A stretch of 64,000 nucleotides of DNA from a phage: the NCBI GenBank assembly GCA_011939005.1, contig GCA_011939005.1_4858.1; one strand, 5' to 3'. The notes under the pieces are model-generated. The model did not search any database. It was not told where the DNA came from and was given only the letters and a program-made list of their open reading frames with translations. The position numbers were made by a program, and so were the translations under genes. Each line of letters begins with the position of its first letter. Within the stretch, counting starts at the first letter, position 1. Positions 323 to 47,893 of this stretch are shown piece after piece.

Positions 323-1678
323 CTACCTCGCGTATTTCAAAATCACGTAGACCATCGGGACGTAATAGAACTGACTGTCCTTCGGTAAAGCCAGCACCAA
401 TTCTGCTAAACGTGCAGCCACTTCACTAGGTACTGGTTGTTTGTTCAGATACAGGTACAAACAATGCTCCAGAACCGAGCTGTACGAGCCGCTATAGAAC
501 GTTTCGCTTAACAGGTAGGGTTTATACGTCAACGGCAGAAAAGCCACCATATCCTCGCCTGCGTTGCCCTGATACTCAGGGAACATAACCGGTTCGAATG
601 CTTCGAACTCTGGCCACTCCCCATCGTACGTTGCCAACTGACGAATCTGTGATGTAAAGTAACGCGTCGAACTGAACTGTGACCATGCAATAGTGTTGCG
701 GGTCTGCATCGTTCTGAATGTGCGCGGGTTAACTGCGCTGCATTCTTTCTCGACGTACGGTAGCAGTTCTGGCTGTTGATTTAACAACACCGTGAACAGT
801 GTTTCGATATCCTGCACAGGTTTCGGCGGGTGTGGGTAAATACGGATATCTTTACCAACGGTTCGAAGACCAATAGCCTTCACAAACATCGCCAAGAAGA
901 CGTCGTAGTAGCCACCTGCCTTTAACCCGTCGAGTTTCCAGTCGCGTGGATAAGCAAGGGTTTCTAAACTGGTATCGTAGAAACGGCGAACAAACGTCGT
1001 CTCAATGTCCTTAATGCGGTCTCCCAGCTCCAGGAACGTACGATACTCGTTGGGGGTCAGTAAGGTATCACCACCGGTCCACGCGCGCTCACGGACGTAA
1101 TGGAGCGTTCTCACAGTGCACAGACGAATCGTCTCTGCAATCTGCGGTGTAATCTCGTACAACATCGTGTAACGTATCTGGTACGTTGCAATTTTGTTGT
1201 TCGACATTCGGGTAACGGCAGTGATGTTAAACAGTCCGTGTCGATGGTCGCCTATCGGCGCAACAAAGAAGTCACCCTCGTTCGGTGTAATCGATGCTAC
1301 CAGGGTCGACGTCCCGGTCAGTTCGAAAGTCTTACGTTGTTCGTCCTGCGTACGGTCGAGCGGTGCGTTAACACGTAATGACAGATTAACAATCTTAAGC
1401 AGCTGTTGCGTAGGGCTGTCATTCTGAGTATCGAACATCGTCTTCGGATCGTTGCGACCCGACAACGCGTGATAAAAATCAACCGGCCATTCAGAACCTT
1501 CGTTGTATTGCAGGAGATACTGTTTCGGAATCCTGTCGAAGTCCGTTACCGTGGTGCGGGTTGGAATCGTTACCAAGTTGCTGGCTTCTTTTACCCCGTC
1601 CTGCGGTTTATTGATAATCGGAATCTCAGGTTCAACAGGAACGAATTTAGTATCACCCCTCTTGTTCGCCTTGAGCAT
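323..1678 (-). CDS. hypothetical protein (451 aa)
   Basis: Long ORF; AGAGGAG Shine-Dalgarno upstream of ATG; start overlaps end of upstream gene. Confidence 0.55.
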   Translation of the reverse strand: MLKANKRGDTKFVPVEPEIPIINKPQDGVKEASNLVTIPTRTTVTDFDRIPKQYLLQYNEGSEWPVDFYHALSGRNDPKTMFDTQNDSPTQQLLKIVNLSLRVNAPLDRTQDEQRKTFELTGTSTLVASITPNEGDFFVAPIGDHRHGLFNITAVTRMSNNKIATYQIRYTMLYEITPQIAETIRLCTVRTLHYVRERAWTGGDTLLTPNEYRTFLELGDRIKDIETTFVRRFYDTSLETLAYPRDWKLDGLKAGGYYDVFLAMFVKAIGLRTVGKDIRIYPHPPKPVQDIETLFTVLLNQQPELLPYVEKECSAVNPRTFRTMQTRNTIAWSQFSSTRYFTSQIRQLATYDGEWPEFEAFEPVMFPEYQGNAGEDMVAFLPLTYKPYLLSETFYSGSYSSVLEHCLYLYLNKQPVPSEVAARLAELVLALPKDSQFYYVPMVYVILKYAR

Positions 1679-3155
1679 TATCGGCTCCTCTGATGGCTAT
1701 AATCGTGGTATTAAATTGCGTCAACAGGACACGGCGATAGAACTTCGTGATTTCATCAATCACACTTGGTGGTAACACAGGTTTATCCCACCACCAATCC
1801 GGGCAATCCCAATCTGGGAATAACCACTCAATAAGCACTTTTGCCGCTTTTGGATAAAGATGCAGTGGCCATAAGTCCATATTACGCCAGTCGTGTATTG
1901 CCGACTCTGTTAAGTAGTACGCTTTCTCGACATGAACTTCACGGTTACGTAGCGAGAAGACACCGTTTTCCCAATGGTAGAAACGTGGTTCAATGATTTG
2001 ACCATTCTCGAACAATTCCATACGGATAATGCCCGTCTGACCTGTCGGGTCTATCGTGCGACAGTGCTCGATATAAGGAACCACGTCGGCATTCCAGACA
2101 TACGGTAAATCATCGATACTACAAACCTCAGGGTCGATCATGTTTTCTTCACCGAAGGCTACATCGGTGCCGAACACATGCAGAAGCTTTGCTTTTAGCG
2201 GCGAGTGTGTACGTTCGAACTGTTCTGTCGGTGACAGCAGATACGGTAGGCGTAAGAACTGGCGAGATTCATTAATCCACCAAGTGCCGTCAAGGTTCTT
2301 TTGCTGTTGGTGACGTTGCACGCCCTCTTCATTACTCACAAACGGTGGGTCTATCTCAGGCCACCATTCATCAGGCAACGGTGTCTGGTTGATAATGTAC
2401 GGGTAGGTAATCACCACCTCTTCGGGTCGCTGATACGAGAAGCGTATAACGAAGCTGGTCTCGTAATGGTTTTCGTCGTTATCCCAGGTAGGAGAGATAA
2501 CATCGTAAACCGTCTCGATACGGGTTGGTGCATAACGCACCGCTAAGACATTCTGGCCACCGGCGACATTGCCTGTGGTGAAAACGTCGGGTGTGAAATG
2601 TGCCTTTAGATAGGCTTTAAAGTCATCGTATTTCGGCACACGGGTCCCTGCGGCGATATAGCATTCGTTCAATAGCTTAAGCGCAGGTTTTGGAATCAAG
2701 TAATACGCTTCGGATTCTGTCATGGTCGAATAGCGACCCATGTCGATAAGTGAATCCAGGCGGTTCGCCCAACGTAACAATTCGTCACGCGATGGGCCGA
2801 CACGCCGTAGCGTGATAGTCACGTTATACATTACGCGGACAGGAGCGGCGCGTACTTGGTCTTCGGGGTTATGGAAGAATGGAATCTCTGCCGCTAACCC
2901 AACTTGACGGTTAATGCGTGCGCGTTCATCACGTTCTTCTTCCACTTCGACGTAGACACGGTTCGGTGCTGAATAGTCCACCGGTGTCTCATCGCCGAGC
3001 GTAGAGCCTGGCTGATGGGCGGTGTTGAAGCTATCCGTGAAAACAACACTGGCACGTTCAATACCAGATTCGTTTAGCACACGTTCTACGACGCCGTCGA
3101 CCACAGCTTTGCGCATGGTCTTGTCCAACGATGGAATTTCAAAATACTGTTGCAT
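1653..3155 (-). CDS. hypothetical protein (500 aa)
   Basis: Long ORF, Trp/Asp-rich; no motif recognised. Confidence 0.55.
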   Translation of the reverse strand: MQQYFEIPSLDKTMRKAVVDGVVERVLNESGIERASVVFTDSFNTAHQPGSTLGDETPVDYSAPNRVYVEVEEERDERARINRQVGLAAEIPFFHNPEDQVRAAPVRVMYNVTITLRRVGPSRDELLRWANRLDSLIDMGRYSTMTESEAYYLIPKPALKLLNECYIAAGTRVPKYDDFKAYLKAHFTPDVFTTGNVAGGQNVLAVRYAPTRIETVYDVISPTWDNDENHYETSFVIRFSYQRPEEVVITYPYIINQTPLPDEWWPEIDPPFVSNEEGVQRHQQQKNLDGTWWINESRQFLRLPYLLSPTEQFERTHSPLKAKLLHVFGTDVAFGEENMIDPEVCSIDDLPYVWNADVVPYIEHCRTIDPTGQTGIIRMELFENGQIIEPRFYHWENGVFSLRNREVHVEKAYYLTESAIHDWRNMDLWPLHLYPKAAKVLIEWLFPDWDCPDWWWDKPVLPPSVIDEITKFYRRVLLTQFNTTIIAIRGADNAQGEQEG

Positions 3156-3194
3156 TAGCTGTCCCTCGTTGTAGTCATATCACTGGCCTAAAAC

Positions 3195-3230
3195 GCAAAA
3201 AAAAGAAAGGGAGCCGAAACTCCCTTCGTG
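3195..3230 (-). terminator. intrinsic terminator (7-bp stem AAGGGAG/CTCCCTT, then U-run on minus strand)
   Basis: Plus strand shows A8 then hairpin directly after stop of 3233..3562. Confidence 0.6.
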
Positions 3231-3232
3231 TT

Positions 3233-3562
3233 TTAGTGGGCCAGCCAAGCCAGCTGCCACTTCTTACATTTTATTCCGCTGTGCCCAACCGGATTGCGGA
3301 TAATGTCCATCGTTTGCCCGACAACGAATTCAATCATCTTGTCTGATAGCATTTTACCCATCGCGATAGAGAGGGCCGTAATTTGATCAGGGTCATCGAT
3401 GTACGCATAGACCGGCTCATTACTGCCGAAGATAAGATAGAAGGAACCCTCGCACACCACGATTGAGGTCAGTGGCACGATACACCCGGTATACTCTCTC
3501 GCCAGTTCAGCCGCTTTTGGGGTTACTTCCATCACGTAACCCTTAACAGATTTCTTTTCCAC
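3233..3562 (-). CDS. hypothetical protein (109 aa)
   Basis: ORF abutting DHFR gene, followed by terminator. Confidence 0.5.
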   Translation of the reverse strand: MEKKSVKGYVMEVTPKAAELAREYTGCIVPLTSIVVCEGSFYLIFGSNEPVYAYIDDPDQITALSIAMGKMLSDKMIEFVVGQTMDIIRNPVGHSGIKCKKWQLAWLAH

Positions 3563-3563
3563 T

Positions 3564-4115
3564 TTAAACTCCAGCGATACGATTTAAAATTTGATACGTC
3601 CAACGGTGCGTGTGTTTCTGGCCGTCGGGTAAATGGGTCATGGTGTAGTCGACTTGAAAAACATCTCTGTCGATTTCTGGGAAGAAAGCATCTGCACCTT
3701 CAACGGCAATGTCAATACGCGATAGATAAATACGATCCGCACGAGCGAGGGTTTGTTGATAAACTGATGCGCCACCAATAATCATCACCTCTTGCTCTTT
3801 TCCGGTATCTTTCTCGATACGTTCCAGAGCTTTGATGGCTAAATCAATACTCGTGTGAAACGTCACCAAACGCATGTCCGTGTGTTCTTCCCGGCCACTG
3901 ATATACCCTTCTGGGTTACGAGTAACAATTAAGTTGCCGCGGTTAGGCAAAGGACGACAACCTAACGATTCCCAGGTCTTACTGCCCATGATAACGTTCT
4001 TCCCTGTGGTGATTGCCTTAAAGTTAGCCAGGTCGGCAGGCAGACGCCACGGCAGTTCATTGTTTTTACCGATGGCGTTGTTGCGGTCCATCGCGACGAT
4101 AATAGAGAGTTTCAC
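3564..4115 (-). CDS. dihydrofolate reductase
   Basis: N-terminal IVAMDRNNAIG..LPW..DL..F...T.GKNVIMGSKTWESL and later MIIGGASVYQQ match the DHFR fold signature; GTG start. Confidence 0.85.
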   Translation of the reverse strand: MKLSIIVAMDRNNAIGKNNELPWRLPADLANFKAITTGKNVIMGSKTWESLGCRPLPNRGNLIVTRNPEGYISGREEHTDMRLVTFHTSIDLAIKALERIEKDTGKEQEVMIIGGASVYQQTLARADRIYLSRIDIAVEGADAFFPEIDRDVFQVDYTMTHLPDGQKHTHRWTYQILNRIAGV

Positions 4116-4486
4116 GGTTTGCTCCTACGGGCTTTAGATAATTCTTTCATTGCGTGGCGTAAATGGCGACTAAATTCAAGACGGCTATACGAGAATGTCA
4201 CCGGATAGTCCAGAATCACCGACAGTGATACCGTTCTGGCATCCACATCGACCAACAGACTGTTCGTACAGCAACCTGCAAACATCCCACTACCAACCAA
4301 CGGCCTCTTAAGCCTAATAGTTAGCGTACCAAGCCATTCTCTGTCGCCGAGCAGCAACAAGGCCTCTGCCAGGTCTTCTTCAACTACCGCTAGACAGTAT
4401 TCGTCATCTCGTACACGGAGGCGAATCTGCGGTTCTACGTTTGCGGTTTCTGGCGTCATCTCAAATTTAAATTTATCGGTCATCAC
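4112..4486 (-). CDS. hypothetical protein (124 aa)
   Basis: ORF; stop overlaps DHFR start by 4 nt. Confidence 0.5.
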   Translation of the reverse strand: MMTDKFKFEMTPETANVEPQIRLRVRDDEYCLAVVEEDLAEALLLLGDREWLGTLTIRLKRPLVGSGMFAGCCTNSLLVDVDARTVSLSVILDYPVTFSYSRLEFSRHLRHAMKELSKARRSKP

Positions 4487-4492
4487 ACAATC

Positions 4493-4524
4493 CCAAAAAA
4501 GAAGGTGGCATGTTAGGCCACCTT
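4493..4524 (-). terminator. intrinsic terminator
   Basis: Hairpin GGTGGC-atgttag-GCCACC flanked by A6 on plus strand (U-run on minus), downstream of 4531..5076. Confidence 0.6.
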
Positions 4525-4530
4525 ATTAAA

Positions 4531-5076
4531 TCATTGAACCATACGCTGCGCGTCGTAAGACGGTGCGAGGTTCACAACACGACCATGTAGAGTTTGCTCT
4601 GCTTCGTCTAACAGGTCATCACGTACGAGTGTCTGGCGAATATAGAGTGTTGCACGCACCCCTTCTGCATTATAAGGAGCGGTGACCATTTTGGTCTGGT
4701 AACCATCAATCGTCACCGGAACACGCTCACCGTTACGACGAACAAAATGCTCCAACTTACCGTAATCGTGACTGCAGACTTTAGACATGTCAGACAATCC
4801 CGCATCGATTAAATATTTCCAAAGTGCGATGATGCCTTCTGAGCAATGTTTGTTAAGTTCGCCTTCGACGACAAACTCGTACCCACCGTACGTTAGAATG
4901 TGCGTGCCTGCTGAGCGACGGTCACATTCTAAAATAAACACACCTAGACCAATCATAACTGGACGTGGAATTGTCATGACACTGGTACTAAATTGCAGCG
5001 TAGTAACCTCATCCCAAAGGGGCGATGATTTATCGTTACTTACGCTAACAATATCTTTAAGATTGACACGTTTCAT
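4531..5076 (-). CDS. hypothetical protein (181 aa)
   Basis: ORF between terminator and next gene. Confidence 0.5.
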   Translation of the reverse strand: MKRVNLKDIVSVSNDKSSPLWDEVTTLQFSTSVMTIPRPVMIGLGVFILECDRRSAGTHILTYGGYEFVVEGELNKHCSEGIIALWKYLIDAGLSDMSKVCSHDYGKLEHFVRRNGERVPVTIDGYQTKMVTAPYNAEGVRATLYIRQTLVRDDLLDEAEQTLHGRVVNLAPSYDAQRMVQ

Positions 5077-5134
5077 TATAAATACTCCTTAAGATTAATG
5101 GTCGATTACATACGGTTTCGGGCTAACGTAATAT

Positions 5135-5896
5135 TTACGCTGCTGGTTCTTCAGCGGTTTTCACTTCAACTGGTTTCATCAGCGAGTTCGCACAGTCGAA
5201 GATAGCATCCAGGAAACCACGGAACGGCTTCATGGCTTCACGCTGGGCGTTCTGACGTTCTTCTTCAGCTGCGACTTCTTGCGCCTGAATTTCTTCAGCA
5301 GTCAGCTCCGGGTGTTCCGTCATGCTTTCTGCCAGCGTCATCACTTTCGGCTGCGCATTCCGAATCGGAATACGGCGGATGACCTTGGTGATGTTCCCGA
5401 GCTTCATGCCACCCAGCACGGTTTCGAACAGCGTACCGAAATCCTGCAGTGGATCTTCGCTGACTTCCAGTACCGCCGGAGTCGCAACCAGACCAATGGC
5501 AATGACCAGTTCAACAACAGTGTCAGTGACGTGCACAGCGAACGGGGTGTCTTCCATCTGCAGGTAAGTGTTACCATTATAGGTCACCGGAATGAATTTG
5601 ATTTCTTCCCCTTTCTTCAGTCGCAGTGTATCGACTGCGGCTTTGTACTGAACTTCGTACAGTTCCGGTTTAACACCGTCAACGTTATCCAGTGTAAAGA
5701 GCAGGTCACCAACCGCCATACGGCGCGGCAGTTTGCGTTTGTTGATTTCGCGCAGCCAGACTTGTAAGCCTGTGAATTGAATTGGGGACAGTATAATTTT
5801 AAAGCCGTTGGTTGCTTGCAGGATAGCACCGTCGTCTTCGTTACGTTCGATAGAGCCATTAGCCAGAGTGAGCAGATTGATAGTTTTCATTTTCAT
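5135..5896 (-). CDS. hypothetical protein (253 aa), acidic C-terminus
   Basis: ORF; motif AGGTAATATATATCT 48-63 nt upstream of start. Confidence 0.5.
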   Translation of the reverse strand: MKMKTINLLTLANGSIERNEDDGAILQATNGFKIILSPIQFTGLQVWLREINKRKLPRRMAVGDLLFTLDNVDGVKPELYEVQYKAAVDTLRLKKGEEIKFIPVTYNGNTYLQMEDTPFAVHVTDTVVELVIAIGLVATPAVLEVSEDPLQDFGTLFETVLGGMKLGNITKVIRRIPIRNAQPKVMTLAESMTEHPELTAEEIQAQEVAAEEERQNAQREAMKPFRGFLDAIFDCANSLMKPVEVKTAEEPAA

Positions 5897-5943
5897 ATTC
5901 CTTAAGTGATAGTCGGTTAAAAGATTACCAATGCAATCTCACC

Positions 5944-5959
5944 TAGGTAATATATATCT
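5944..5959. promoter_or_regulatory. conserved near-palindromic promoter-like motif (variant AGGTAATATATATCT)
   Basis: Member of recurrent AGATAATATCTATCT family, upstream of minus-strand gene start at 5896. Confidence 0.4.
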
Positions 5960-5980
5960 GAAATCTTTTCTAATCCGAGA

Positions 5981-6020
5981 CAAAAAAAGAAAGGGTAAAT
6001 CCCCCACCGAAGTGGGGGAT
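5981..6020 (-). terminator. intrinsic terminator with UUCG loop on minus strand
   Basis: CCCCCAC-cgaa-GTGGGGG hairpin with A7 on plus strand, downstream of 6033..7292. Confidence 0.5.
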
Positions 6021-6032
6021 TCGCCAGTCTAA

Positions 6033-7292
6033 TTACTTAGACTTTTCGTACGCACCGATACCAGCGCTGATGTAGCCGTTAACGCCGGCGATCAGGTTTT
6101 TCTGGCCGGTTGCAACGCAACGTTCGGTCCAGGAGATGTACTGGTTCGCAACGGTGATTGCACGACGTGCAACACGGACGTTGGAAGTCAGTTCTGCGTT
6201 GTCGTCGATCTTCACGCCGTCGATACGTTTCAGCAGTTTCTCAATAGCCTGCTCGTAACGCTCTTGAGCCTGGTTATTTTTGTGGTATGCTTTCACGTTC
6301 TCTTCGACTGCTTTACCCAGCTGGTTGAAGAACGCAACCAGGGAAGACAGAGTCTGAGCAGACGGAGTAGAAACAGACTGCTCTACGCTACCTTCGGCGT
6401 CGATAACAGTGAAGGAAGCTTCCAGGTCATCCCCATTCACTTTCACTTCGGCTTTACCGATCTGGTTGCCCAGCAGCTGAACTTCGCCCGCTTTACCTGC
6501 GGTTGCTTTGTTAACCGCTGCTGCAAAGCCAGAGCCCAGTTTGCCGCCTTCAACTGCGCCAACCATAGCGGTAGCGGCTGCAACAACTGCATCCTGCTCA
6601 GCGTAAATGCTGCCGATAGAAGACATAACGCCTTTCAGGGTGTTGATGTCGTCACCGACGAACTTACCACCGGTGGTCAGGTTCTTAATGAACCCACCGC
6701 TAACGGTGTCTTTCTTCTGCTTGCCCAGGCCACGCAGAGCAGCGTCATATTTCTTAGCACGCGCCTGAATGGATTTACCCTGGTTGCTGAACTTCAGCCA
6801 ACGGTCTTTAACCTTACGGCCTTGTTCTTTCAGCCAGTCGTAGATGCGCTGCAGGAACGCTTTGATGTCGTCCCACAGGCTTTCACGAGCAACCTGGCGG
6901 CGCTTACGTGCACCGTAAGATTCCTGCGCGACGCTTACGCGGTGGTCGAATGCCCAACGTTTACGGATAGATTCCTGCGCAACGTCCAGCTGCTCAGCAG
7001 CTTCGTCAGGCATATCTTCTTCCACTTCCATTGGCTCTTCGCCATCTTCACCTTCACCGTCAGCGGCAGCTTCAGCAGCATCGACTGCTTCCAGCTGCGC
7101 GTCGGTTTCGTCGCCGTCTTCTGCCAGCACATCTGCTTCAGCATCCAGCTGGTCGATCGGTTTGGTGTCGTGCTCGATGTCAGCCAGAGTACCTTCTACG
7201 GACTCAGCCGGCAGCTCGATACCGTCCGGAACGACAGTACCTGTACCTTCGACAGATTCACGCGCGAGTTTACTTTTTACAAAGTTTGCCAT
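6033..7292 (-). CDS. acidic paralog A of tandem pair (possible virion or internal protein)
   Basis: N-terminus MANFVKSKLARESVE and C-terminus GYISAGIGAYEKSK shared with 7370..8647; Asp/Glu-rich middle. Confidence 0.6.
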   Translation of the reverse strand: MANFVKSKLARESVEGTGTVVPDGIELPAESVEGTLADIEHDTKPIDQLDAEADVLAEDGDETDAQLEAVDAAEAAADGEGEDGEEPMEVEEDMPDEAAEQLDVAQESIRKRWAFDHRVSVAQESYGARKRRQVARESLWDDIKAFLQRIYDWLKEQGRKVKDRWLKFSNQGKSIQARAKKYDAALRGLGKQKKDTVSGGFIKNLTTGGKFVGDDINTLKGVMSSIGSIYAEQDAVVAAATAMVGAVEGGKLGSGFAAAVNKATAGKAGEVQLLGNQIGKAEVKVNGDDLEASFTVIDAEGSVEQSVSTPSAQTLSSLVAFFNQLGKAVEENVKAYHKNNQAQERYEQAIEKLLKRIDGVKIDDNAELTSNVRVARRAITVANQYISWTERCVATGQKNLIAGVNGYISAGIGAYEKSK

Positions 7293-39254: not shown

Positions 39255-40091
39255 TTACTTCATAAGCCTGCGGAGCAGTTCAATTACAAATGGCTCATTC
39301 ACCAGTTTTAGACAGTTATAAATACGGTCCATTGTGGTATCCTGTTTCCAGCTGTACTTCTCTGCGGTTTTTAACACCACCCCACGCGTTTTGCGATCGA
39401 GGGGTGAAAACATTATCCCGTCGCCAAACAACGTCAGGAACGCTTTGTTAAACGGAATATGTTGGGGTTTCCCGTTAAGTTTGGTGTACCACTCCAGTTG
39501 TGTTTTCACTTTACCGGTGTGCGATTCCAACAAACCCAGTTTAGGGAAATCTTTACGTGCCAGGAGATCAGCTGGCATGTGGGTCAGTAACAGTGTGTCG
39601 CGGCTACCCTCTGGGAAAACATCGAATTGACGGAAGTAATTTTCGTGTTTCTCACCGTACATTTTTAAGGTGTCGTGTTCCAGTGCATTATAGTGCAGCT
39701 GGTTTGGCGTCATCTTATCCTGACCGCCTGCAATGTTTTTGAACGAGGCTTCGGGAAACACTTTGTTAGCGCTACGATAGCTACAAAGGTACGGAACGCA
39801 TAACACCGAAGGGGCTACCGCTCTCGCGGTAGCCGTAAGATTATTAATATCTTCTTCAATCGATGTTAGCATCACGTCGGGTGTTAACCGTTCTCTATTC
39901 TCTTCAAACGCATAGAAGGCGTTACGGAACAATGTCCGGAGATTCAGGTATATTTCCTGATAGGAATGGATAGGCAATTCACCTTTCCAGTCGGCGTATT
40001 CGCCGGTATGCAGCAGACCTTCAAACGCCAGCGAACTGGCGATTGACACTGAATAGAACCCGAAAGTGCGATCAACACTGATTGGATTCAT
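39255..40091 (-). CDS. hypothetical protein (278 aa)
   Basis: ORF. Confidence 0.5.
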   Translation of the reverse strand: MNPISVDRTFGFYSVSIASSLAFEGLLHTGEYADWKGELPIHSYQEIYLNLRTLFRNAFYAFEENRERLTPDVMLTSIEEDINNLTATARAVAPSVLCVPYLCSYRSANKVFPEASFKNIAGGQDKMTPNQLHYNALEHDTLKMYGEKHENYFRQFDVFPEGSRDTLLLTHMPADLLARKDFPKLGLLESHTGKVKTQLEWYTKLNGKPQHIPFNKAFLTLFGDGIMFSPLDRKTRGVVLKTAEKYSWKQDTTMDRIYNCLKLVNEPFVIELLRRLMK

Positions 40092-41239
40092 TCTATTTTC
40101 CTAATGATTGCAGTAACAACATCAGGGTCGTACTTCACTGATGTTAGCTCTTCGAGAACCAACCGTTCGAAGTTCTCAGGAGTAGGTTTTTCGTACAGTG
40201 GGGCTTCGTTCGAAAAACTCTTCACTAACAACTCCTCTTCTTCAGAGGAGCGCACACGTTCTCCAGATATGTGGAACGTGTATTCTTTTTTCCACCGACT
40301 GACGTATTCGGCCATCGGTGAGCCTGCGTAATACTCGACCTCAAATCGCCCAATAGCGGACGAGGGATGATTGTCGATGTATTCTAATGCAGAAAGACAA
40401 GCTGCTAACTGCGCATCAAAGTCTTCCTGTGCCCGAATCTTTTTCTGCGGGCACGCGCGTGGGTTAACCAGGAAATAATCCCTGGCAACCGTATCGGTGA
40501 AATCGACAAGAGCTACGCCTTTGTCCTCCTCTTCACCTTGAGATAGTCGCTCAGGACTACCTACAACTCTTATCTTGTCTAATTCCTTGGGTCGATGGTC
40601 ATGCCCGATAAATATCAGGTGCTTGACTCTCGGCAACCAGAACTCCTCGTGGAAAGAACGAGGGGACTCGACAGGGAGTTGAAACTGGAAGCAGCCGTGC
40701 ATGAAGATAAAGTCTAACTTCTCCAAGCCTCGTGTCGCCATCAGTTCTGCCATTTCTGCCTCAGTGGCAGCAGCATTAATTTCATCGACGCCAGCAGCTT
40801 TATATTCGTCCTGCACCCAACCTACCATCGCATCGAGAGCCGGATCGTAAAATATCCCGATCCCTGCCAAATACAAACAGTCTGCGCCTATACTGATGTT
40901 CAGCGACTCAACTATTTTGGACTGGCCATGGTCATGGGACGGTGTTCCCTCAACGATGCGAACGGCGGTATTAGTGGCCTTAGACCACTGGAGCAACCAC
41001 GTCAAGAAGCCCACAGCTTCTTGAGAATCTTCCTGGCGAAGATGTCGGGAATCATCAAATAAATCCCCTGCTATATAAAAGGCGTCAAGCGTATTTTCGC
41101 AGCTAATGAGTATCTCACGTATCACATCCACGATGTGCCATGTGGGCACACGTTTATGCAACAAATGGATATCGTTAGTGTTCAAAAGGCGCTTAACGCC
41201 TTCTGGTCTCTTAGGAGGTTTAGTAATCTTCTCCATCAC
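40088..41239 (-). CDS. calcineurin-like metallophosphoesterase (Mre11/SbcD-like nuclease)
   Basis: Ordered motifs D-x-H (NDIHLLH), GDxxD (IAGDLFDD), GxxxHD (GTPSHDHG), H (FIFMHGC), GHxH (FIGHDHR). Confidence 0.6.
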   Translation of the reverse strand: MMEKITKPPKRPEGVKRLLNTNDIHLLHKRVPTWHIVDVIREILISCENTLDAFYIAGDLFDDSRHLRQEDSQEAVGFLTWLLQWSKATNTAVRIVEGTPSHDHGQSKIVESLNISIGADCLYLAGIGIFYDPALDAMVGWVQDEYKAAGVDEINAAATEAEMAELMATRGLEKLDFIFMHGCFQFQLPVESPRSFHEEFWLPRVKHLIFIGHDHRPKELDKIRVVGSPERLSQGEEEDKGVALVDFTDTVARDYFLVNPRACPQKKIRAQEDFDAQLAACLSALEYIDNHPSSAIGRFEVEYYAGSPMAEYVSRWKKEYTFHISGERVRSSEEEELLVKSFSNEAPLYEKPTPENFERLVLEELTSVKYDPDVVTAIIRKIE

Positions 41240-42957: not shown

Positions 42958-43230
42958 TTAGCCCATCACCGCTTCCAACGGAATGCCTTCTTCATCATCC
43001 TCATCTGCTTCAATAAGGAACTGGTTCTGCATACTGATTAGCTCGTTATGTAAAACCATGCCGTGTTCTACGCGGTCCACATCAGTAGAAGACATAAAGC
43101 CGTTATCTGGACGGAATTGGAGCGCCAACTTCATCTCAGTTTCATCGACTGGTAAACGTACCTGGAACTGGTCGCCATCAAAATCCTGTTTGTCCACTCC
43201 AATCCTTTTGGAGCAGGTGTGTAGTAACAC
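42958..43230 (-). CDS. RNA polymerase beta-prime-like subunit, 3' exon (carries catalytic DFDGDQ motif)
   Basis: LLHTCSKRIGVDKQDFDGDQFQV matches beta-prime [21 protein letters not shown]; open frame begins right after in-frame TAG TGA. Confidence 0.65.
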   Translation of the reverse strand: MLLHTCSKRIGVDKQDFDGDQFQVRLPVDETEMKLALQFRPDNGFMSSTDVDRVEHGMVLHNELISMQNQFLIEADEDDEEGIPLEAVMG

Positions 43231-44589
43231 CCTCCCTAACTTTCACTAGGGCACAGACCATACCTTAGCCATGAGCTTTCGCTTTTAGGCTCCTCCCCAC
43301 TTCGGTGCTATTCTAAGCACCTACGAGCATTTCAGCTCCGGTCGTTGAACGTTCCTCTTACGAGGCTTCGCTGCTGATTACCCATTGTTAAAACCCTTAG
43401 CAGTATTGTTTAGCATAGGTCATCTCATTACTTGTTTCCGACTTTCGTCTCCACATGGGCAAATGAGCTTTAGGGGTTCCCAGCAATTCAGGGAGATACA
43501 CATCAGAGGTTTCCCGTCTGATGGGGCAAGGCTATTCTGCTGTTAAATATTGAACTTCAAATTGTTTGTACTTTCCGGTTTGTGAGACTGCTTTGGCCAC
43601 AGTGTTTCTTTTCACACCAATCGCGTTTGAAAACTCTTGTAAAGAATTCCAAATGGTTTTGATGTTAGTGGTCGTATCAGTCACACGCACCATCGACGGT
43701 ACACGTTTTGGCATTTGTGATTGTGGTCTGGGTTTGCGGAGATCGATCATGTCAGTTATGGCAACATCGATATCCACCATGTACCACGCCTCATATCCAA
43801 ACTTAGTCAAATCGACGGAACCGCCGTTGAGATGGGAATAGATGAGGTGTGGTTTTATACCCACGTATTCGGCTGCTGCCGGTACAGACGAGAACAGGAA
43901 ATATGGTTCCTTACCAACTTTTCTGATGACCAGTCCTTTATTACCTGGTCCTGAGTTCTTACCAATAGAATTCTTGGTGAGAATCCAGTCGTCTTCCGGT
44001 ACCTTGACTTCAAACACATCATTTAGCGTGTATTGACGATTAAGCCCACGTGCGATCGAGCTTGAAACCAAGTGCCGATTAACGCCGATATACTCAGCCG
44101 CCTTAGTCATGCTACGGAACTGAACTATATCGCCGGTCTCGAGATTTCTGACATCGACAATAATGTTGTCAGTTCTTAGACCAGTATCGAAAGCATGATT
44201 AACATTTTCCTTTCGATAACACCACTCAAGGTTTACCACAGATGGATTACTCTTAACACCATCACGATGGTTAACCTCGTCACCACATTTATCCAGGAAC
44301 ACAGTCGCAACAATTCGATGTAAATGGGTTTCGCCTTTACAACCGCGCACTCCCAGGTATCCACTTTTGAGAATGAAGACTGGTAGCGGCGTGACCATAC
44401 CTTTTACTTTACAGTCGCCCAATGCATCAACAAAGAGATCACGATAGACTGGGTGTCTGTAATACCCCTTAAAAACATACGAGGGCTCTAAATCATCGCG
44501 TAGTTTCCTACTCAACTTTTCAATAATCACAATTTATTCCCTATTACCAGTCACCGACTAAGAATAAGGAATAGCAGAATAACACTTTT
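43231..44589 (-). mobile_element. putative group I intron (phage IA-like) carrying an HNH homing endonuclease ORF; boundaries approximate
   Basis: Splits a beta-prime-like coding sequence; ~300 nt non-coding RNA after the endonuclease ORF contains GUUCAACGACC (R-like) and UAUGGUCUGUGC (S-like) elements whose GACC/GGUC can pair as P7; candidate 5' exon ends in U and intron ends in G. Confidence 0.55.
43532..44530 (-). CDS. HNH homing endonuclease with NUMOD/IENR-type DNA-binding repeats
   Basis: HLHRIVA...VNHRDGVKSNPSVVNLEWCYRKENVNHA is an HNH motif; three helix-turn-helix-like repeats AAEYIGVNRHLV, AAEYVGIKPHLI, FSNAIGVKRNTV. Confidence 0.8.
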   Translation of the reverse strand: MIIEKLSRKLRDDLEPSYVFKGYYRHPVYRDLFVDALGDCKVKGMVTPLPVFILKSGYLGVRGCKGETHLHRIVATVFLDKCGDEVNHRDGVKSNPSVVNLEWCYRKENVNHAFDTGLRTDNIIVDVRNLETGDIVQFRSMTKAAEYIGVNRHLVSSSIARGLNRQYTLNDVFEVKVPEDDWILTKNSIGKNSGPGNKGLVIRKVGKEPYFLFSSVPAAAEYVGIKPHLIYSHLNGGSVDLTKFGYEAWYMVDIDVAITDMIDLRKPRPQSQMPKRVPSMVRVTDTTTNIKTIWNSLQEFSNAIGVKRNTVAKAVSQTGKYKQFEVQYLTAE

Positions 44590-45957
44590 ACCGTTAGCCA
44601 TCTTGATCACACGGTCAGAGATACGCAGCGAACACTGGTTAACATCGGTAACAACTTCGTCGATGAACAGCGTCTGAATAGACAACTGTACCAGCGTTGG
44701 GTTACGTAGCGGTATGACCATGATCCCAAGACCGCCTGGGGATTCACGAATCAGTTCTTTAAAGATTTCGTCTACAAGCGGGTCATACTGCATTGCCGCT
44801 TTTGCGACGATACGTTCACACTGCCGTGACGAATAACCGCGTCGTAGCAGTTTGTTCTCGATGTGGGTCGACATCAACCCAACCATCCAACGCCATGGTG
44901 CTTTTAACTTCCAGGCATCGTGTGGTTCTGAGATAGGTGAGATGGTTGCACGACCACCGAACGGGATGTGGGTAGAACCCAATTTCGCACGATAGTCACC
45001 CGGTTTACCTTCCATAGACTCACGACGGAAGTCCATGTGGAAGTACGTTAGCTGACGGTTCGCCTTCAAAGCACGACTAATCAGAAAACGTGGTTCGATC
45101 GCTTTACGCCGCGTATAGAGCAACGCGATATTTTTCACCGCGTCAATAGCACCCGTGAACACTGGGTCTACCATGACACCACGACGACCTTCCTCAGTAA
45201 CGATAAGTTTAGAGGAGATTAGCGGTAAGTGTCTTGGGAAGAATGCATGGCGTTGCGTTTCGAATAGCTCCTTCCATTGTAAACGTAAGCGTTCACCTTC
45301 AGCGGCGTTATGCCGATTAGGTGCGAAGATTTCCTTCCAGGCTTCTGGCGTGGTAAGGATGTTAAAGATACTAACGTGGTTATCAACCAGATTGCGCAAG
45401 CCACGAACGAAACCATGTTCTTCCAATACACGTTTCACAGCATGTGCGCGTTTACCGTCTGGTTCTTCTATACGGTAATACGGGTCAATCATCCACATCA
45501 TCAAGTCATTACCGCGTTCGATAGTGACCTTGTTACGTTCAAACTTCTTCAACTTGCTATTAAAGAAAGCATTGAACATTGCCCAGAATCGTGGGTTGAC
45601 GAAGTTACCCATTTCATCGGGTGCACGTAACCAGACATCGGATTCAATTCGATGTTCAGTTACAACATAGCCACACGTCGGACACTTACAACCGAGATTG
45701 TAACGATGCGCGATCGGTGCCGGACAATCCAAACTACAAATCGGTGCAGAGTTCAGTTCTTCGTCAACGATTCTGTTCTGTACCATGCGATCGATAAGTT
45801 CAGCAACCTCGATCGCATCCCCGTTAACGGCGACATCGTTAATAATAGTGGGTGGTTTAATACCTTTGGCAGCAGCTTCTATTTGCAAATCGGACAAATA
45901 GTTATCCTGACTAACCAACCGGCCGGATATTCCGTAGAATTTTGGTACCTTTCTCAC
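44551..45957 (-). CDS. RNA polymerase beta-prime-like subunit, N-terminal part (5' exon; ORF reads on into the intron to the stop at 44551)
   Basis: Zinc-ribbon-like CSLDCPAPIAHRYNLGCKCPTCGYVVT and RNPTLVQLSIQTL resembling beta-prime RxPTLHRLGIQAF. Confidence 0.7.
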   Translation of the reverse strand: MRKVPKFYGISGRLVSQDNYLSDLQIEAAAKGIKPPTIINDVAVNGDAIEVAELIDRMVQNRIVDEELNSAPICSLDCPAPIAHRYNLGCKCPTCGYVVTEHRIESDVWLRAPDEMGNFVNPRFWAMFNAFFNSKLKKFERNKVTIERGNDLMMWMIDPYYRIEEPDGKRAHAVKRVLEEHGFVRGLRNLVDNHVSIFNILTTPEAWKEIFAPNRHNAAEGERLRLQWKELFETQRHAFFPRHLPLISSKLIVTEEGRRGVMVDPVFTGAIDAVKNIALLYTRRKAIEPRFLISRALKANRQLTYFHMDFRRESMEGKPGDYRAKLGSTHIPFGGRATISPISEPHDAWKLKAPWRWMVGLMSTHIENKLLRRGYSSRQCERIVAKAAMQYDPLVDEIFKELIRESPGGLGIMVIPLRNPTLVQLSIQTLFIDEVVTDVNQCSLRISDRVIKMANGKSVILLFLILSR

Positions 45958-46039: not shown

Positions 46040-47893
46040 TTACAGTTTGAAGTTGCTCAGAGTCACGCCCAGACCGAAATCGGAACCGCTTGCAGACAGG
46101 CCGTTGCCAGACAGCGTGAAGTCTTCCCCACCGTTGTTGAAGAACAGAGAGGTCGCCATCGTGTTGTAGGCATTTACACCAGTCATAGACCAGGTGCAGT
46201 TGTTACGGACGAAGTCCAGCAGGCATTTACCGAAGATCGGGTTGATAGCCATATCCAGAGATTCACCGGTAGCTTGCGGTGCTTTGGATGCGAACAGAGA
46301 AGCGGCCAGTTTCAGCATGTAGATACGCTGTTGACGCTCGTTCAGTTCACGGTGGCTGTAGGACTGTGCGTTCAGGTAGCTATAGACGTCGTTCGCGTTA
46401 TCACCCAGTTTGGTAACAACGGAAATCAGGTCCATATCCTGGAAGCTACGTTTCTGTGCAGTACCGGTGTAAACACCGGAAACAGTCGGTACGGCTGCTT
46501 TCACGATGTGGCTGCAATGGATGGTACCATTGAAGGCATCGCCCAGCTGTGCTTTCAGTGCAGAAGCAAATACTGCAGTGAAGCTGGTCGCTGCAACAAC
46601 TTCGCCGTTCTGATCACGCGGGGACATGGAATTCAGAATAGCGAGCAGCTGTTTCAGAGAGTTGTCGTAACCGACCGCAATTTCAGACAGCAAAGTAGAC
46701 AGACCACCCAGGCCGTTACCGGCACGATGGCTAACTACCAGTGCTGCTTCACGCGGTGCGAACATATCCAGGCAACCTTCGATAGCTTCACGGCTACCGT
46801 CGATTTTGGATACATCAGGACGAGCGTCAGCACCCCAGGACAGGTATTCTGCCACACGGGAGAACTTGCGATCTTGTTTGTTCAGACGTTTCACAAACAG
46901 GTCACGCCAGCCACCGATTGCCGCGATTTCTGCAAATGCAGCCAGCAGCAGCAGTTGACGTTCATACGGTGCCATTGCACCTTCAGTTTGAGAATCGATC
47001 AGACTTACTACGATTTCAGCCTGCAGCTGTTTCAGGTCGTAGACGCCGTTAACGACAGGCTTCTGACCGGTGAAACGCATATTGACGAAACCGGTACCGG
47101 ATACACGCGGATACACCTGTACCTGATTGGTGTCCAGCAGAGTCGGAGTGGCGTCGGTTACGTTGCTTGGGCTGTGCTCAACGGTGATTGCGAAATCAGC
47201 ACGCTGTGCGTGGCCGTTAGCATCAACAACCGCACCATCTTCCAGCGGCATTACTGCGGCCTGATAACGGTCATGCTTACGCAGGTTCAGCGTACCCAGG
47301 TAGCCTGCGATACGACCGAAGATGCCCATCATCATCTGACCCATCAGAGTACGTGCCCACTCAGCATCCAGAACTTTACCCAGGTCTGGTACGGAGTTGA
47401 TGATCATGAAGTTCGCATTGGTCAGACCATGCGCTTCCATGATGTTTTTCTGTACTACTGCCAGCACGTCTTTGTTGAACAGTTCAGTGATGGTGTAGTA
47501 GTCTTCCTGGCCGTTGTTGGTAGTTTCTTTCAGACGCAGAGACTGACCGCGTTCAAAGAAGATGATACCGTACAGCCAGTGGCCCTGCCATTGGCCTGCG
47601 ACGTACGCCGCGGAACCCATTTCGTTACCCACGCCGACGATGGTGCCCCAGCGGAATGCGTTGAGGTATTCGTTGCTTTTCTTCAGCTCATCCAGGAGGT
47701 TGGTGAAGTGCATTGCATAGGTGCTGATGTTGCGGATGCCAAATGCGTTATCGAATTGGCTGACAGTAGAAGTACCCGGCACAGCAGTTTGCACTTTTAC
47801 AGTCTCGTTGCCCAGACCGCCCAGTGGTGCGGTGTCTTGAGTCTGAGTGTTGTTCTGCTGAGCGTTGTTGTTAGAGTCAACGATTTTTACCAT
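46040..47893 (-). CDS. abundant 617-aa protein: candidate phage-nucleus shell (chimallin-like) or major structural protein
   Basis: AAGGAA Shine-Dalgarno, promoter-like motif 45 nt upstream, strong terminator downstream, sits beside the beta-prime-like gene; assignment is by context only. Confidence 0.4.
   Translation of the reverse strand: MVKIVDSNNNAQQNNTQTQDTAPLGGLGNETVKVQTAVPGTSTVSQFDNAFGIRNISTYAMHFTNLLDELKKSNEYLNAFRWGTIVGVGNEMGSAAYVAGQWQGHWLYGIIFFERGQSLRLKETTNNGQEDYYTITELFNKDVLAVVQKNIMEAHGLTNANFMIINSVPDLGKVLDAEWARTLMGQMMMGIFGRIAGYLGTLNLRKHDRYQAAVMPLEDGAVVDANGHAQRADFAITVEHSPSNVTDATPTLLDTNQVQVYPRVSGTGFVNMRFTGQKPVVNGVYDLKQLQAEIVVSLIDSQTEGAMAPYERQLLLLAAFAEIAAIGGWRDLFVKRLNKQDRKFSRVAEYLSWGADARPDVSKIDGSREAIEGCLDMFAPREAALVVSHRAGNGLGGLSTLLSEIAVGYDNSLKQLLAILNSMSPRDQNGEVVAATSFTAVFASALKAQLGDAFNGTIHCSHIVKAAVPTVSGVYTGTAQKRSFQDMDLISVVTKLGDNANDVYSYLNAQSYSHRELNERQQRIYMLKLAASLFASKAPQATGESLDMAINPIFGKCLLDFVRNNCTWSMTGVNAYNTMATSLFFNNGGEDFTLSGNGLSASGSDFGLGVTLSNFKL

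Follow-up and report, generated by a model that had tools for sequence, protein, structure and literature searches.

A stretch of phage DNA of 64,000 nucleotides (nt) (assembly GCA_011939005.1, contig GCA_011939005.1_4858.1; the whole stretch is called the window below) was found to come from an SPN3US-like jumbo phage (Seoulvirus), a giant Salmonella phage. The region 42958..45957 of the window is a single gene, the counterpart of phiKZ gp55, encoding the N-terminal beta-prime-like subunit of the non-virion multisubunit RNA polymerase. Right before the codons for its DFDGD motif, the gene appears to be interrupted by a mobile group I intron of subgroup IA containing an open reading frame (ORF) for an HNH endonuclease, a reading to which we assign a probability of about 0.9. 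Judged by its sequence, the element is predicted to splice, to nick and to home. The Seoulvirus intron is new, unannotated and polymorphic; the arrangement is already known from phiKZ.

The interrupted gene and its exons

The 3.1 kb around the intron show 98.9% identity to Salmonella phage SaP7 and Proteus phage 7 and 95-99% identity, as two blocks, to ~30 further SPN3US-like Seoulvirus jumbo phages. All four features of the locus are carried on the minus strand, to which the coordinates given below for the intron and its host gene refer: an ORF of 468 amino acids (44551..45957), an ORF of 332 amino acids, ~350 nt without an ORF and an ORF of 90 amino acids (42958..43230). The first consists of exon 1 plus read-through into the intron and the last, which has DFDGDQ inside it, of the 3' end of the intron plus exon 2. 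A preliminary description of the region, made from the sequence before any database search, had recognised a beta-prime N-terminal homolog in the first ORF, DFDGDQ in the last and an HNH endonuclease between the two, and all of these were found again in the present analysis.

Exon 1 (44590..45957) has 456 codons, ends with ...RVIKMANG and has U44590 as its last base. It is homologous to phiKZ gp55 and equals residues 1-456 of SPN3US gp23 except for the reading of the start codon. The ORF list and the sequence show its frame continuing into the intron over 44551..44589 as KSVILLFLILSR, followed by a TGA at 44553..44551. Exon 2 (42958..43185) begins with DFDGDQFQV, has 75 codons and a stop, and equals gp23 residues 457-531. 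The best match of the spliced protein is phiKZ gp55 (PDB 7OGP_A, E 5e-39), with bacterial beta-prime at ~1e-5, and the alignment with gp55 is free of gaps across the junction (ikmaNGDFDGDQ here, NADFDGDQ in phiKZ). Chain A of PDB 7OGP is gp55 itself, the N-terminal beta-prime subunit of the phiKZ non-virion RNA polymerase. The homology and the double-psi beta-barrel metal-binding motif place the protein in the gp55 family, and this motif is complete only once the gene is spliced.

Boundaries of the intron

The gene is uninterrupted in SPN3US, where gp23 has 531 codons. Alignment of the window with gp23 gives a single insertion of exactly 1404 nt, 44589..43186. Joining 45957..44590 to 43185..42958 in silico gives a protein of 531 amino acids in which 531/531 residues equal those of gp23, with a difference only in the reading of the GTG start. 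The predicted junction is therefore ...AAC GGU↓GAU UUU GAU... (the arrow marks a splice site or an insertion point throughout), or ...RVIKMANG↓DFDGDQFQV... in protein. At the DNA level the spliced product is predicted to read ...ATGGCTAACGGT↓GATTTTGATGGC, and the tryptic peptide over the junction would be MANGDFDGDQFQVR. The intron is preceded by a U (44590) and its last base is a G (43186, omegaG), which fits group I chemistry. Thus the extra DNA relative to the intron-less allele, the Rfam match and the covariation described below together define a group I intron of 1404 nt at 43186..44589, with a terminal G and an excision that restores the frame. An intein or a group II intron was ruled out, there being no in-frame protein insertion and no GUGYG...AY ends.

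This 3' splice site differs from the one first proposed. The preliminary description had correctly recognised the nature of the element and its place at the catalytic motif, but had put the junction at RVIKMANG↓VLLHTC (43230), which is wrong by 45 nt, and had accordingly given the separation of the exons as 1359 nt rather than the 1404 nt of the comparison with SPN3US. The 45 nt in question, 43230..43186, had been taken as exon encoding VLLHTCSKRIGVDKQ. They are missing from the intron-less alleles and instead form most of the intron 3' domain (43186..43231), made up of P9.1 (43231..43216), P9.2 (43213..43197) and the tail UGGACAAACAG leading to omegaG. Both hairpins (helices 19 and 20 of the alignment described below) covary: the pairings GGUGU/ACACC in P9.1 and CUCCAA/UUGGAG in P9.2 are kept despite different letters in phage EC001 (CUGUAUAC/GUAUACGG), Raoultella, phiKZ and Goslar. 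In EC001, which has a diverged intron without an ORF at the same site, the same 45 nt include a TAG in frame and differ by a 6-nt indel. The stretch is also alignable to the 3' domain of the phiKZ intron, the phiKZ tail CUGAACAAUACG↓ corresponding to UGGACAAACAG↓ in the window. By these comparisons, 43230..43186 is intron RNA and not exon. The likeness of LLHTC to the HPLVC of bacterial beta-prime, also pointed out earlier, is coincidental, since it falls in this intron RNA.

Ribozyme core and fold

At the Rfam gathering threshold no intron match was obtained in the region. When Rfam was run in E-value mode, the full-length Intron_gpI model (RF00028) matched 43234..43562 at 47 bits, with an E-value of 4.3e-10 when the region was searched and of 7.8e-9 over the whole window. 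This match, from the kind of covariance-model search proposed in the preliminary description, is below the gathering score of 50. The same permissive scan of the whole window gave no second intron. Introns of relatives located at the site or <=3 nt from it, which include forms with and without an endonuclease ORF, score higher (phiKZ 75.6, EC001 69.4, Vibrio 66.5, Raoultella 63.8 and phiKp_32 58.6 bits).

Seven introns were aligned from P2 to the 3' end using MAFFT, which is blind to structure: those of the window, EC001, Raoultella VB_ZK_P1, Klebsiella phiKp_32, Vibrio phage 2 TSL-2019 and phiKZ, and the second core of Goslar. RNAalifold recovered P2, P3, P4, P5 and its extensions, P6, P7.1, P7.2, P8 and P9.1 from this alignment; P7, which forms a pseudoknot with P3, P9 and P9.2 were added by hand. 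Standard pairs occupy 89.4% of the cells, against 37-44% when the partners are slid by 1-3 columns. Changes on both sides are seen in 50/88 pairs, against 7-19 when slid, and 0/500 shuffles match the observed values.

From the Rfam alignment, RNAalifold and the pair counts, the ribozyme core was placed at 43234..43523. It begins with P2 (43523..43501) and the 5' strand of P3 (about 43497..43491), followed by P4 (43485..43479 with 43377..43372), which has the P5 extensions between its strands, and P6 (43371..43349). P7 pairs 43345..43340 with 43259..43253 and encloses P7.1 (43338..43325), P7.2 (43321..43304), the 3' strand of P3 (about 43298..43292) and P8 (43291..43267); P9 (43251..43234) completes the core. 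The R element GUUCAACGACC (43350..43340) and the S element UAUGGUCUGUGC (43262..43251) noted at first inspection are present and are the two strands of P7. The conserved catalytic core, P3 to P8 with the P/Q/R/S elements and the P3/P7 pseudoknot, is recognisable. In the window P7.1 is GAGC-UGAAAU-GCUC and P7.2 is GGUGCU-UAGAAU-AGCACC, whereas EC001 has UCGC/GCGA and GGGGUCC/GGACUUC (compensatory changes, helices 12 and 13). The presence of P7.1 and P7.2 between P7 and the 3' strand of P3 indicates subgroup IA, typical for phage introns.

P1, the guide sequence and the endonuclease

The pairings of P1 in the window and its relatives were read by eye and not formally scored. In the window the 5' strand GGU↓AA (44588..44592) pairs with the internal guide sequence UUGCC (43525..43529), leaving U44590 in a U.G wobble. 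The corresponding pairings are GGU↓UC/GAGCC in EC001, GCU↓AA/UUGGC in Raoultella intron 1, GAU↓AG/CUGUC in Vibrio and CCUAAU↓/GUUGGG in phiKZ. The U.G pair is kept in all of them and the guide strand follows the local exon sequence. Just inside P1 an extension, P1a, closes the loop containing the endonuclease ORF. Its 5' strand GUUAUUCUGCU (44573..44583) pairs with the 3' strand AGCAGAAUAGC (43531..43541), which includes the UAG stop codon of the endonuclease, in 11 consecutive pairs (10 Watson-Crick, 1 G.U). A 12-bp helix of unrelated sequence at the same place in phiKp_32 flanks that intron's own ORF of 339 amino acids. For P10, the helix between the guide sequence and the 3' exon, no convincing pairing could be established: the window allows only ~2 bp (G.U, A-U) and EC001 offers none that convinces. 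Not every group I intron has a strong P10, or one at all.

The ORF in the terminal loop of P1a (43532..44530) encodes a putative I-HmuI-like HNH homing endonuclease of 332 amino acids with HNH_3 and NUMOD1 repeats. Pfam finds two NUMOD1 domains (55.1 bits, cut-off 22.8), together with an I-HmuI-type NUMOD-like segment, and HNH_3 at 20.0 bits (E 5e-4, cut-off 24.8). The protein also matches PHROG 59 'HNH endonuclease' (E 3e-29) and the HNH region of I-HmuI (PDB 1U3E, E 4e-4) across 'hlhrivatvf ... evnhrdgvksn ... nlew', where the HNH core residues align. It is 29% identical to phiKZ gp56 over 235 amino acids (E 4e-19) and resembles the ORF of the phiKp_32 intron (E 2e-14). The SaP7 endonuclease is intact with 1 amino-acid difference, the SaP7 intron having 7 nucleotide differences in 1404. 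An HNH motif and NUMOD-type DNA-binding modules are both recognisable in the sequence, and by homology the protein is predicted to be active.

Three allele states within one viral species

Among 38 related records the intron with the ORF is found in SaP7, Proteus phage 7 and SPFM1, with a core in Proteus phage 7 that matches at 99.7%. A 356-nt intron without the ORF, whose core is ~78% identical, is found in EC001, Lh1B, SPLA3, SPLA5c, JN03 and phage 1252. SPN3US, SEGD1 and most SPFM phages belong to the records with no intron, which make up at least 21 of the 30 listed. Three allele states therefore exist inside a single viral species (Seoulvirus SPN3US).

The window and SPN3US differ at 54 positions in 4.7 kb of flanks and 6 of these differences fall in 28 nt at the insertion site (positions -15, -6, -3, 0, +6 and +12), all six being synonymous. 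The intron-containing alleles all share GCT AAC GGT (GCTAACGGT) where intron-less alleles have GCA AAT GGA. The intron-less target of the SPN3US type reads GCAAATGGA↓GATTTCGATGGT, or GTGATAAAGATGGCAAATGGAGATTTCGATGGTGACCAG in longer form, and the spliced junction of the intron-plus allele would read GCTAACGGTGATTTTGATGGC. These shared exon markers would fit co-conversion in the course of homing, the need for a U at the splice site and for pairing with the guide, and self-protection from the endonuclease, which are not mutually exclusive. The element is nearly unchanged in independent isolates (SaP7, Proteus phage 7). Its presence there, in a gene for the catalytic site of a presumably essential polymerase, was counted as support for viability.

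Proposed mechanism

In the mechanism we propose, the intron would fold in the pre-mRNA into the P3 to P8 core with its P3/P7 pseudoknot, P7.1/P7.2, P9, P9.1 and P9.2, while the short P1 (GGU↓AA with UUGCC) would set U44590 in the U.G wobble. The endonuclease ORF, being located in the terminal loop of P1a, would leave the ribozyme free to fold around it. An external guanosine would then attack after U44590 and the freed exon 1 would attack after the terminal G 43186, so that ligation of AAC GGU to GAU UUU GAU would restore MANG-DFDGDQ and with it the magnesium-binding aspartate triad. The I-HmuI-like HNH/NUMOD1 enzyme is predicted to nick intron-less SPN3US-type alleles in a mixed infection, whereupon recombinational repair would copy the intron together with adjacent exon bases, i.e. 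homing.

Comparison with known systems

The closest known system is that of phiKZ, in which the same gene and order are found: gp54 (nuclear shell protein), gp55, gp56 (HNH, 334 amino acids), a core of 75.6 bits and gp56.1 (PMC11512511). The two ribozymes are alignable including P9.1, P9.2 and the tail, and both have the endonuclease ORF between P1 and P2. They differ in that the phiKZ insertion is 3 nt upstream (N↓ADFDGD versus NG↓DFDGD here) with the guide GUUGGG instead of UUGCC, the phiKZ intron is without the P5 extension of the window, the core sequences have diverged, and host and genus are different. Introns of phiKZ have been described ever since its genome was published, as cited in PMC11512511 and PMC10914365. 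For the spliced phiKZ product a length of 488 amino acids and a mass of 55.7 kDa are computed, against 47.9 kDa for the unspliced ORF. Native phiKZ gp55, in polymerase purified from infected cells, is 56 kDa (PMC4666361), and the cryo-EM model of gp55 has DFDGD at residues 417-421 (PMC8287921). The observed mass matches the spliced product and DFDGD lies beyond the 415 residues of exon 1, which is evidence for splicing of the phiKZ intron.

A second parallel is PhiPA3, where a putative group I intron lies beside conserved aspartates of the catalytic region in a jumbo-phage RNA polymerase gene and encodes gp210, a nicking homing endonuclease of the HNH type. This enzyme cuts the intron-less phiKZ homolog and gives a competitive advantage (Birkholz et al. 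2024, PMC11620839). The gene interrupted in PhiPA3 is that of the beta subunit of the virion polymerase, and both the activity of gp210 and its effect on phage competition are experimental results. The presence of an invasive element at the active site of the polymerase had seemed striking at first; this was overstated, as phiKZ, the type phage of the group, has the same arrangement (PMC11512511) and intron endonucleases of jumbo-phage RNA polymerase genes have already been studied experimentally (PMC11620839). No paper on an intron in Seoulvirus phages turned up in a literature search.

More distantly, I-HmuI and I-BasI (Bacillus phages SPO1, SP82 and Bastille, DNA polymerase gene) also combine a group I intron with an HNH nicking enzyme and NUMOD-type modules. 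Their host gene is different, and the window endonuclease is about twice as long, has extra NUMOD1 repeats and is located in the P1 loop; the overall similarity is low. The td, nrdB and sunY introns of T4 (IA2) are also phage-borne IA introns: they have P7.1/P7.2, their P1 is short, and an endonuclease ORF, where there is one, is looped out from a peripheral helix. The T4 endonucleases, by contrast, are of the GIY-YIG type (I-TevI, I-TevII) or another HNH type (I-TevIII), and the loops that house them are those of P6 or P9.

Alternative explanations

Several observations weigh against the assignment as a mobile, splicing intron. The Rfam score is 3 bits short of the gathering score, likely because an endonuclease ORF comes between the strands of P1, with P1 and P2 misaligned to the model. 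The seven aligned introns share descent, so the covariation counts overstate the number of independent events. P1 in the window is just 5 bp and P10 just ~2 bp, and the HNH_3 match, being under the Pfam cut-off, does not assure endonuclease activity. Finally, long-read transcriptomics of phiKZ gave no spliced reads for the homologous intron under the conditions tested (PMC10914365).

The same intron could be spliced at 43231/43230, leaving VLLHTCSKRIGVDKQ between MANG and DFDGDQ in the protein. The frame would be kept (45 nt = 15 codons), a G (43231) stands before this site and the Rfam alignment, which ends at 43234, leaves the 3' end undefined. The 15 extra residues are nevertheless absent from SPN3US gp23, which is otherwise identical at 531/531 positions, and the alignments with phiKZ gp55 and with bacterial beta-prime show no gap at NGDFDGD. 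Together with the stop codon and indel of EC001, the compensatory changes in both hairpins and the homology of the stretch to the 3' domain of the phiKZ intron, this makes the upstream site extremely improbable. There might also be no splicing at all, the gene being permanently split around a ribozyme relic with its pieces translated apart, the 3' piece from the GTG at 43197..43195, and assembled non-covalently. Subunits of jumbo-phage RNA polymerases are naturally split elsewhere (PMC7598289), an AAGGA-N5-GTG motif is present at 43207..43195 and the missing spliced reads of the phiKZ homolog (PMC10914365) would agree with such a split. The core helices, however, are all intact and kept by covariation, which is unexpected for a relic; the AAGGA sits in the loop of P9.2 and is not conserved in EC001. 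The break would cut the double-psi beta-barrel right before the metal-binding triad and add the KSVILLFLILSR tail to the first piece, yet the exons are constrained as in the uninterrupted allele (100% amino-acid identity). Given in addition that the native mass of phiKZ gp55 is that of the spliced product (PMC4666361), a permanently split gene is very improbable.

Less easily set aside, though still unlikely, is that splicing occurs but that the endonuclease is inactive on any current target or mainly a maturase, the intron being inherited vertically and its polymorphism arising through loss. In group I introns the cyclic gain and decay of endonucleases is well documented. The low HNH_3 score would agree with an inactive enzyme, and the ORF form is found in only ~3/38 related genomes against a diverged, ORF-less intron in 6. 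On the other hand, the ORF is full-length and intact in both the window and SaP7, its HNH core residues align with those of I-HmuI and the synonymous differences flanking the site resemble co-conversion or target-site immunity. The homologous class of enzyme is also active in PhiPA3 (PMC11620839). A spliced intron with a homing endonuclease, ending at 43186, thus remains the preferred reading.

Other introns at the DFDGD codons of jumbo phages

Related introns were seen at neighbouring positions in other jumbo phages. In Vibrio phage 2 TSL-2019 and Photobacterium PDCC-1 a related intron lies after the first D codon (NAD↓FDGD), 3 nt downstream of the site in the window. The locus coordinates are about 2458..2849 for the Vibrio and Photobacterium introns and 2672..4040 for the phiKZ intron. 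The guide sequences of the Vibrio and phiKZ introns fit their own exon contexts. The DFDGD codons resemble a hot spot of insertion. In the homologous gene of Escherichia phage Goslar (locus 4248..6050) two group-I-like cores flank an HNH ORF, one of them annotated as Intron_gpI with 46.9 bits, and a DGD-coding snippet, GACGGTGAC, lies between the two cores.

In the gp55-like gene of Raoultella VB_ZK_P1 and Klebsiella phiKp_32 two insertions surround a 12-nt micro-exon, GATTTTGACGGT (D-F-D-G), at locus 2859..3181. Even at E <=10, Rfam gives nothing for the second insertion (311 nt, 2871..3181), which is nevertheless strongly structured (z = -3.8), has a P1-like hairpin CGGU↓A.../UUGCCG with the invariant U.G pair and ends in G. 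Homologs of 255-258 nt are present in the Aeromonas phages CF8 (locus 2418..2674), ACP1 (2493..2750), ZPAH34 (620..874), AhC3_1 (620..875) and PS1 (618..875). They occupy the same codon position (DFDG↓DQLSAN) in another beta-prime-like gene, whose neighbour in ZPAH34 is annotated as a virion-associated polymerase. In the Aeromonas family the exon resumes at GACCAACTA (DQLSAN), giving a normal terminal G. RNAalifold gives 69 pairs for the second-intron family, 27 of them changed on both sides. The family may be a group I subgroup missed by RF00028.

The insertions are thus staggered within ~15 nt: N↓A in phiKZ, G/A↓D in the window and Raoultella, D↓F in Vibrio and G↓D in Raoultella, Klebsiella and Aeromonas. 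The guide sequence of each suits its own exon context. We tentatively suggest, at somewhat less than even odds, that the DFDGD DNA of jumbo-phage beta-prime genes is a shared landing site for several intron lineages and that the endonuclease in the window may be a weapon against co-infecting intron-less SPN3US-type phages, compare PhiPA3 gp210.

Annotation and neighbouring features

In the GenBank records of SaP7, Proteus phage 7, EC001 and SPLA3/5c the exons are listed as separate 'RNA polymerase beta subunit' genes and the endonuclease as hypothetical. The first coding sequence of EC001 (1544..3495) runs into the intron, and in SaP7 (1715..4543) the endonuclease is annotated from a downstream ATG as 'hypothetical protein'. 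These records should read as one spliced gene with the junction AACGGT↓GATTTT. With three allele states in one species, a Salmonella jumbo phage accessible to genetics offers a natural system in which homing, co-conversion and competition through introns could be measured. Nothing here overturns current understanding.

Relatives of this phage build a phage nucleus; should it do so too, transcription would take place physically apart from translation, which raises the questions of where splicing happens and how the endonuclease reaches DNA. Just upstream of the polymerase gene, where phiKZ, Goslar and the Vibrio phages have the nuclear shell protein (chimallin), the window has an ORF of 617 amino acids (46040..47893, minus strand). 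As a candidate chimallin it gave nothing by phmmer against the PDB and only E 0.088 by BLASTP against Goslar chimallin, and it falls in PHROG 8316, whose function is unassigned. On the other side of the gene, an ORF of 383 amino acids (40088..41239, minus strand) matches PHROG 100 'SbcD-like subunit of palindrome specific endonuclease' (E 3e-62).

The window also contains a tRNA-Trp (CCA) on the minus strand, placed at 62737..62812 by ARAGORN and at 62740..62812 by Rfam. A second, tRNA-like sequence at 61313..61382 (minus strand) is matched by Rfam (37.7 bits) but missed by ARAGORN. With 3 nt aligned in the anticodon loop in place of 7, it may be a degenerate or unusual tRNA.

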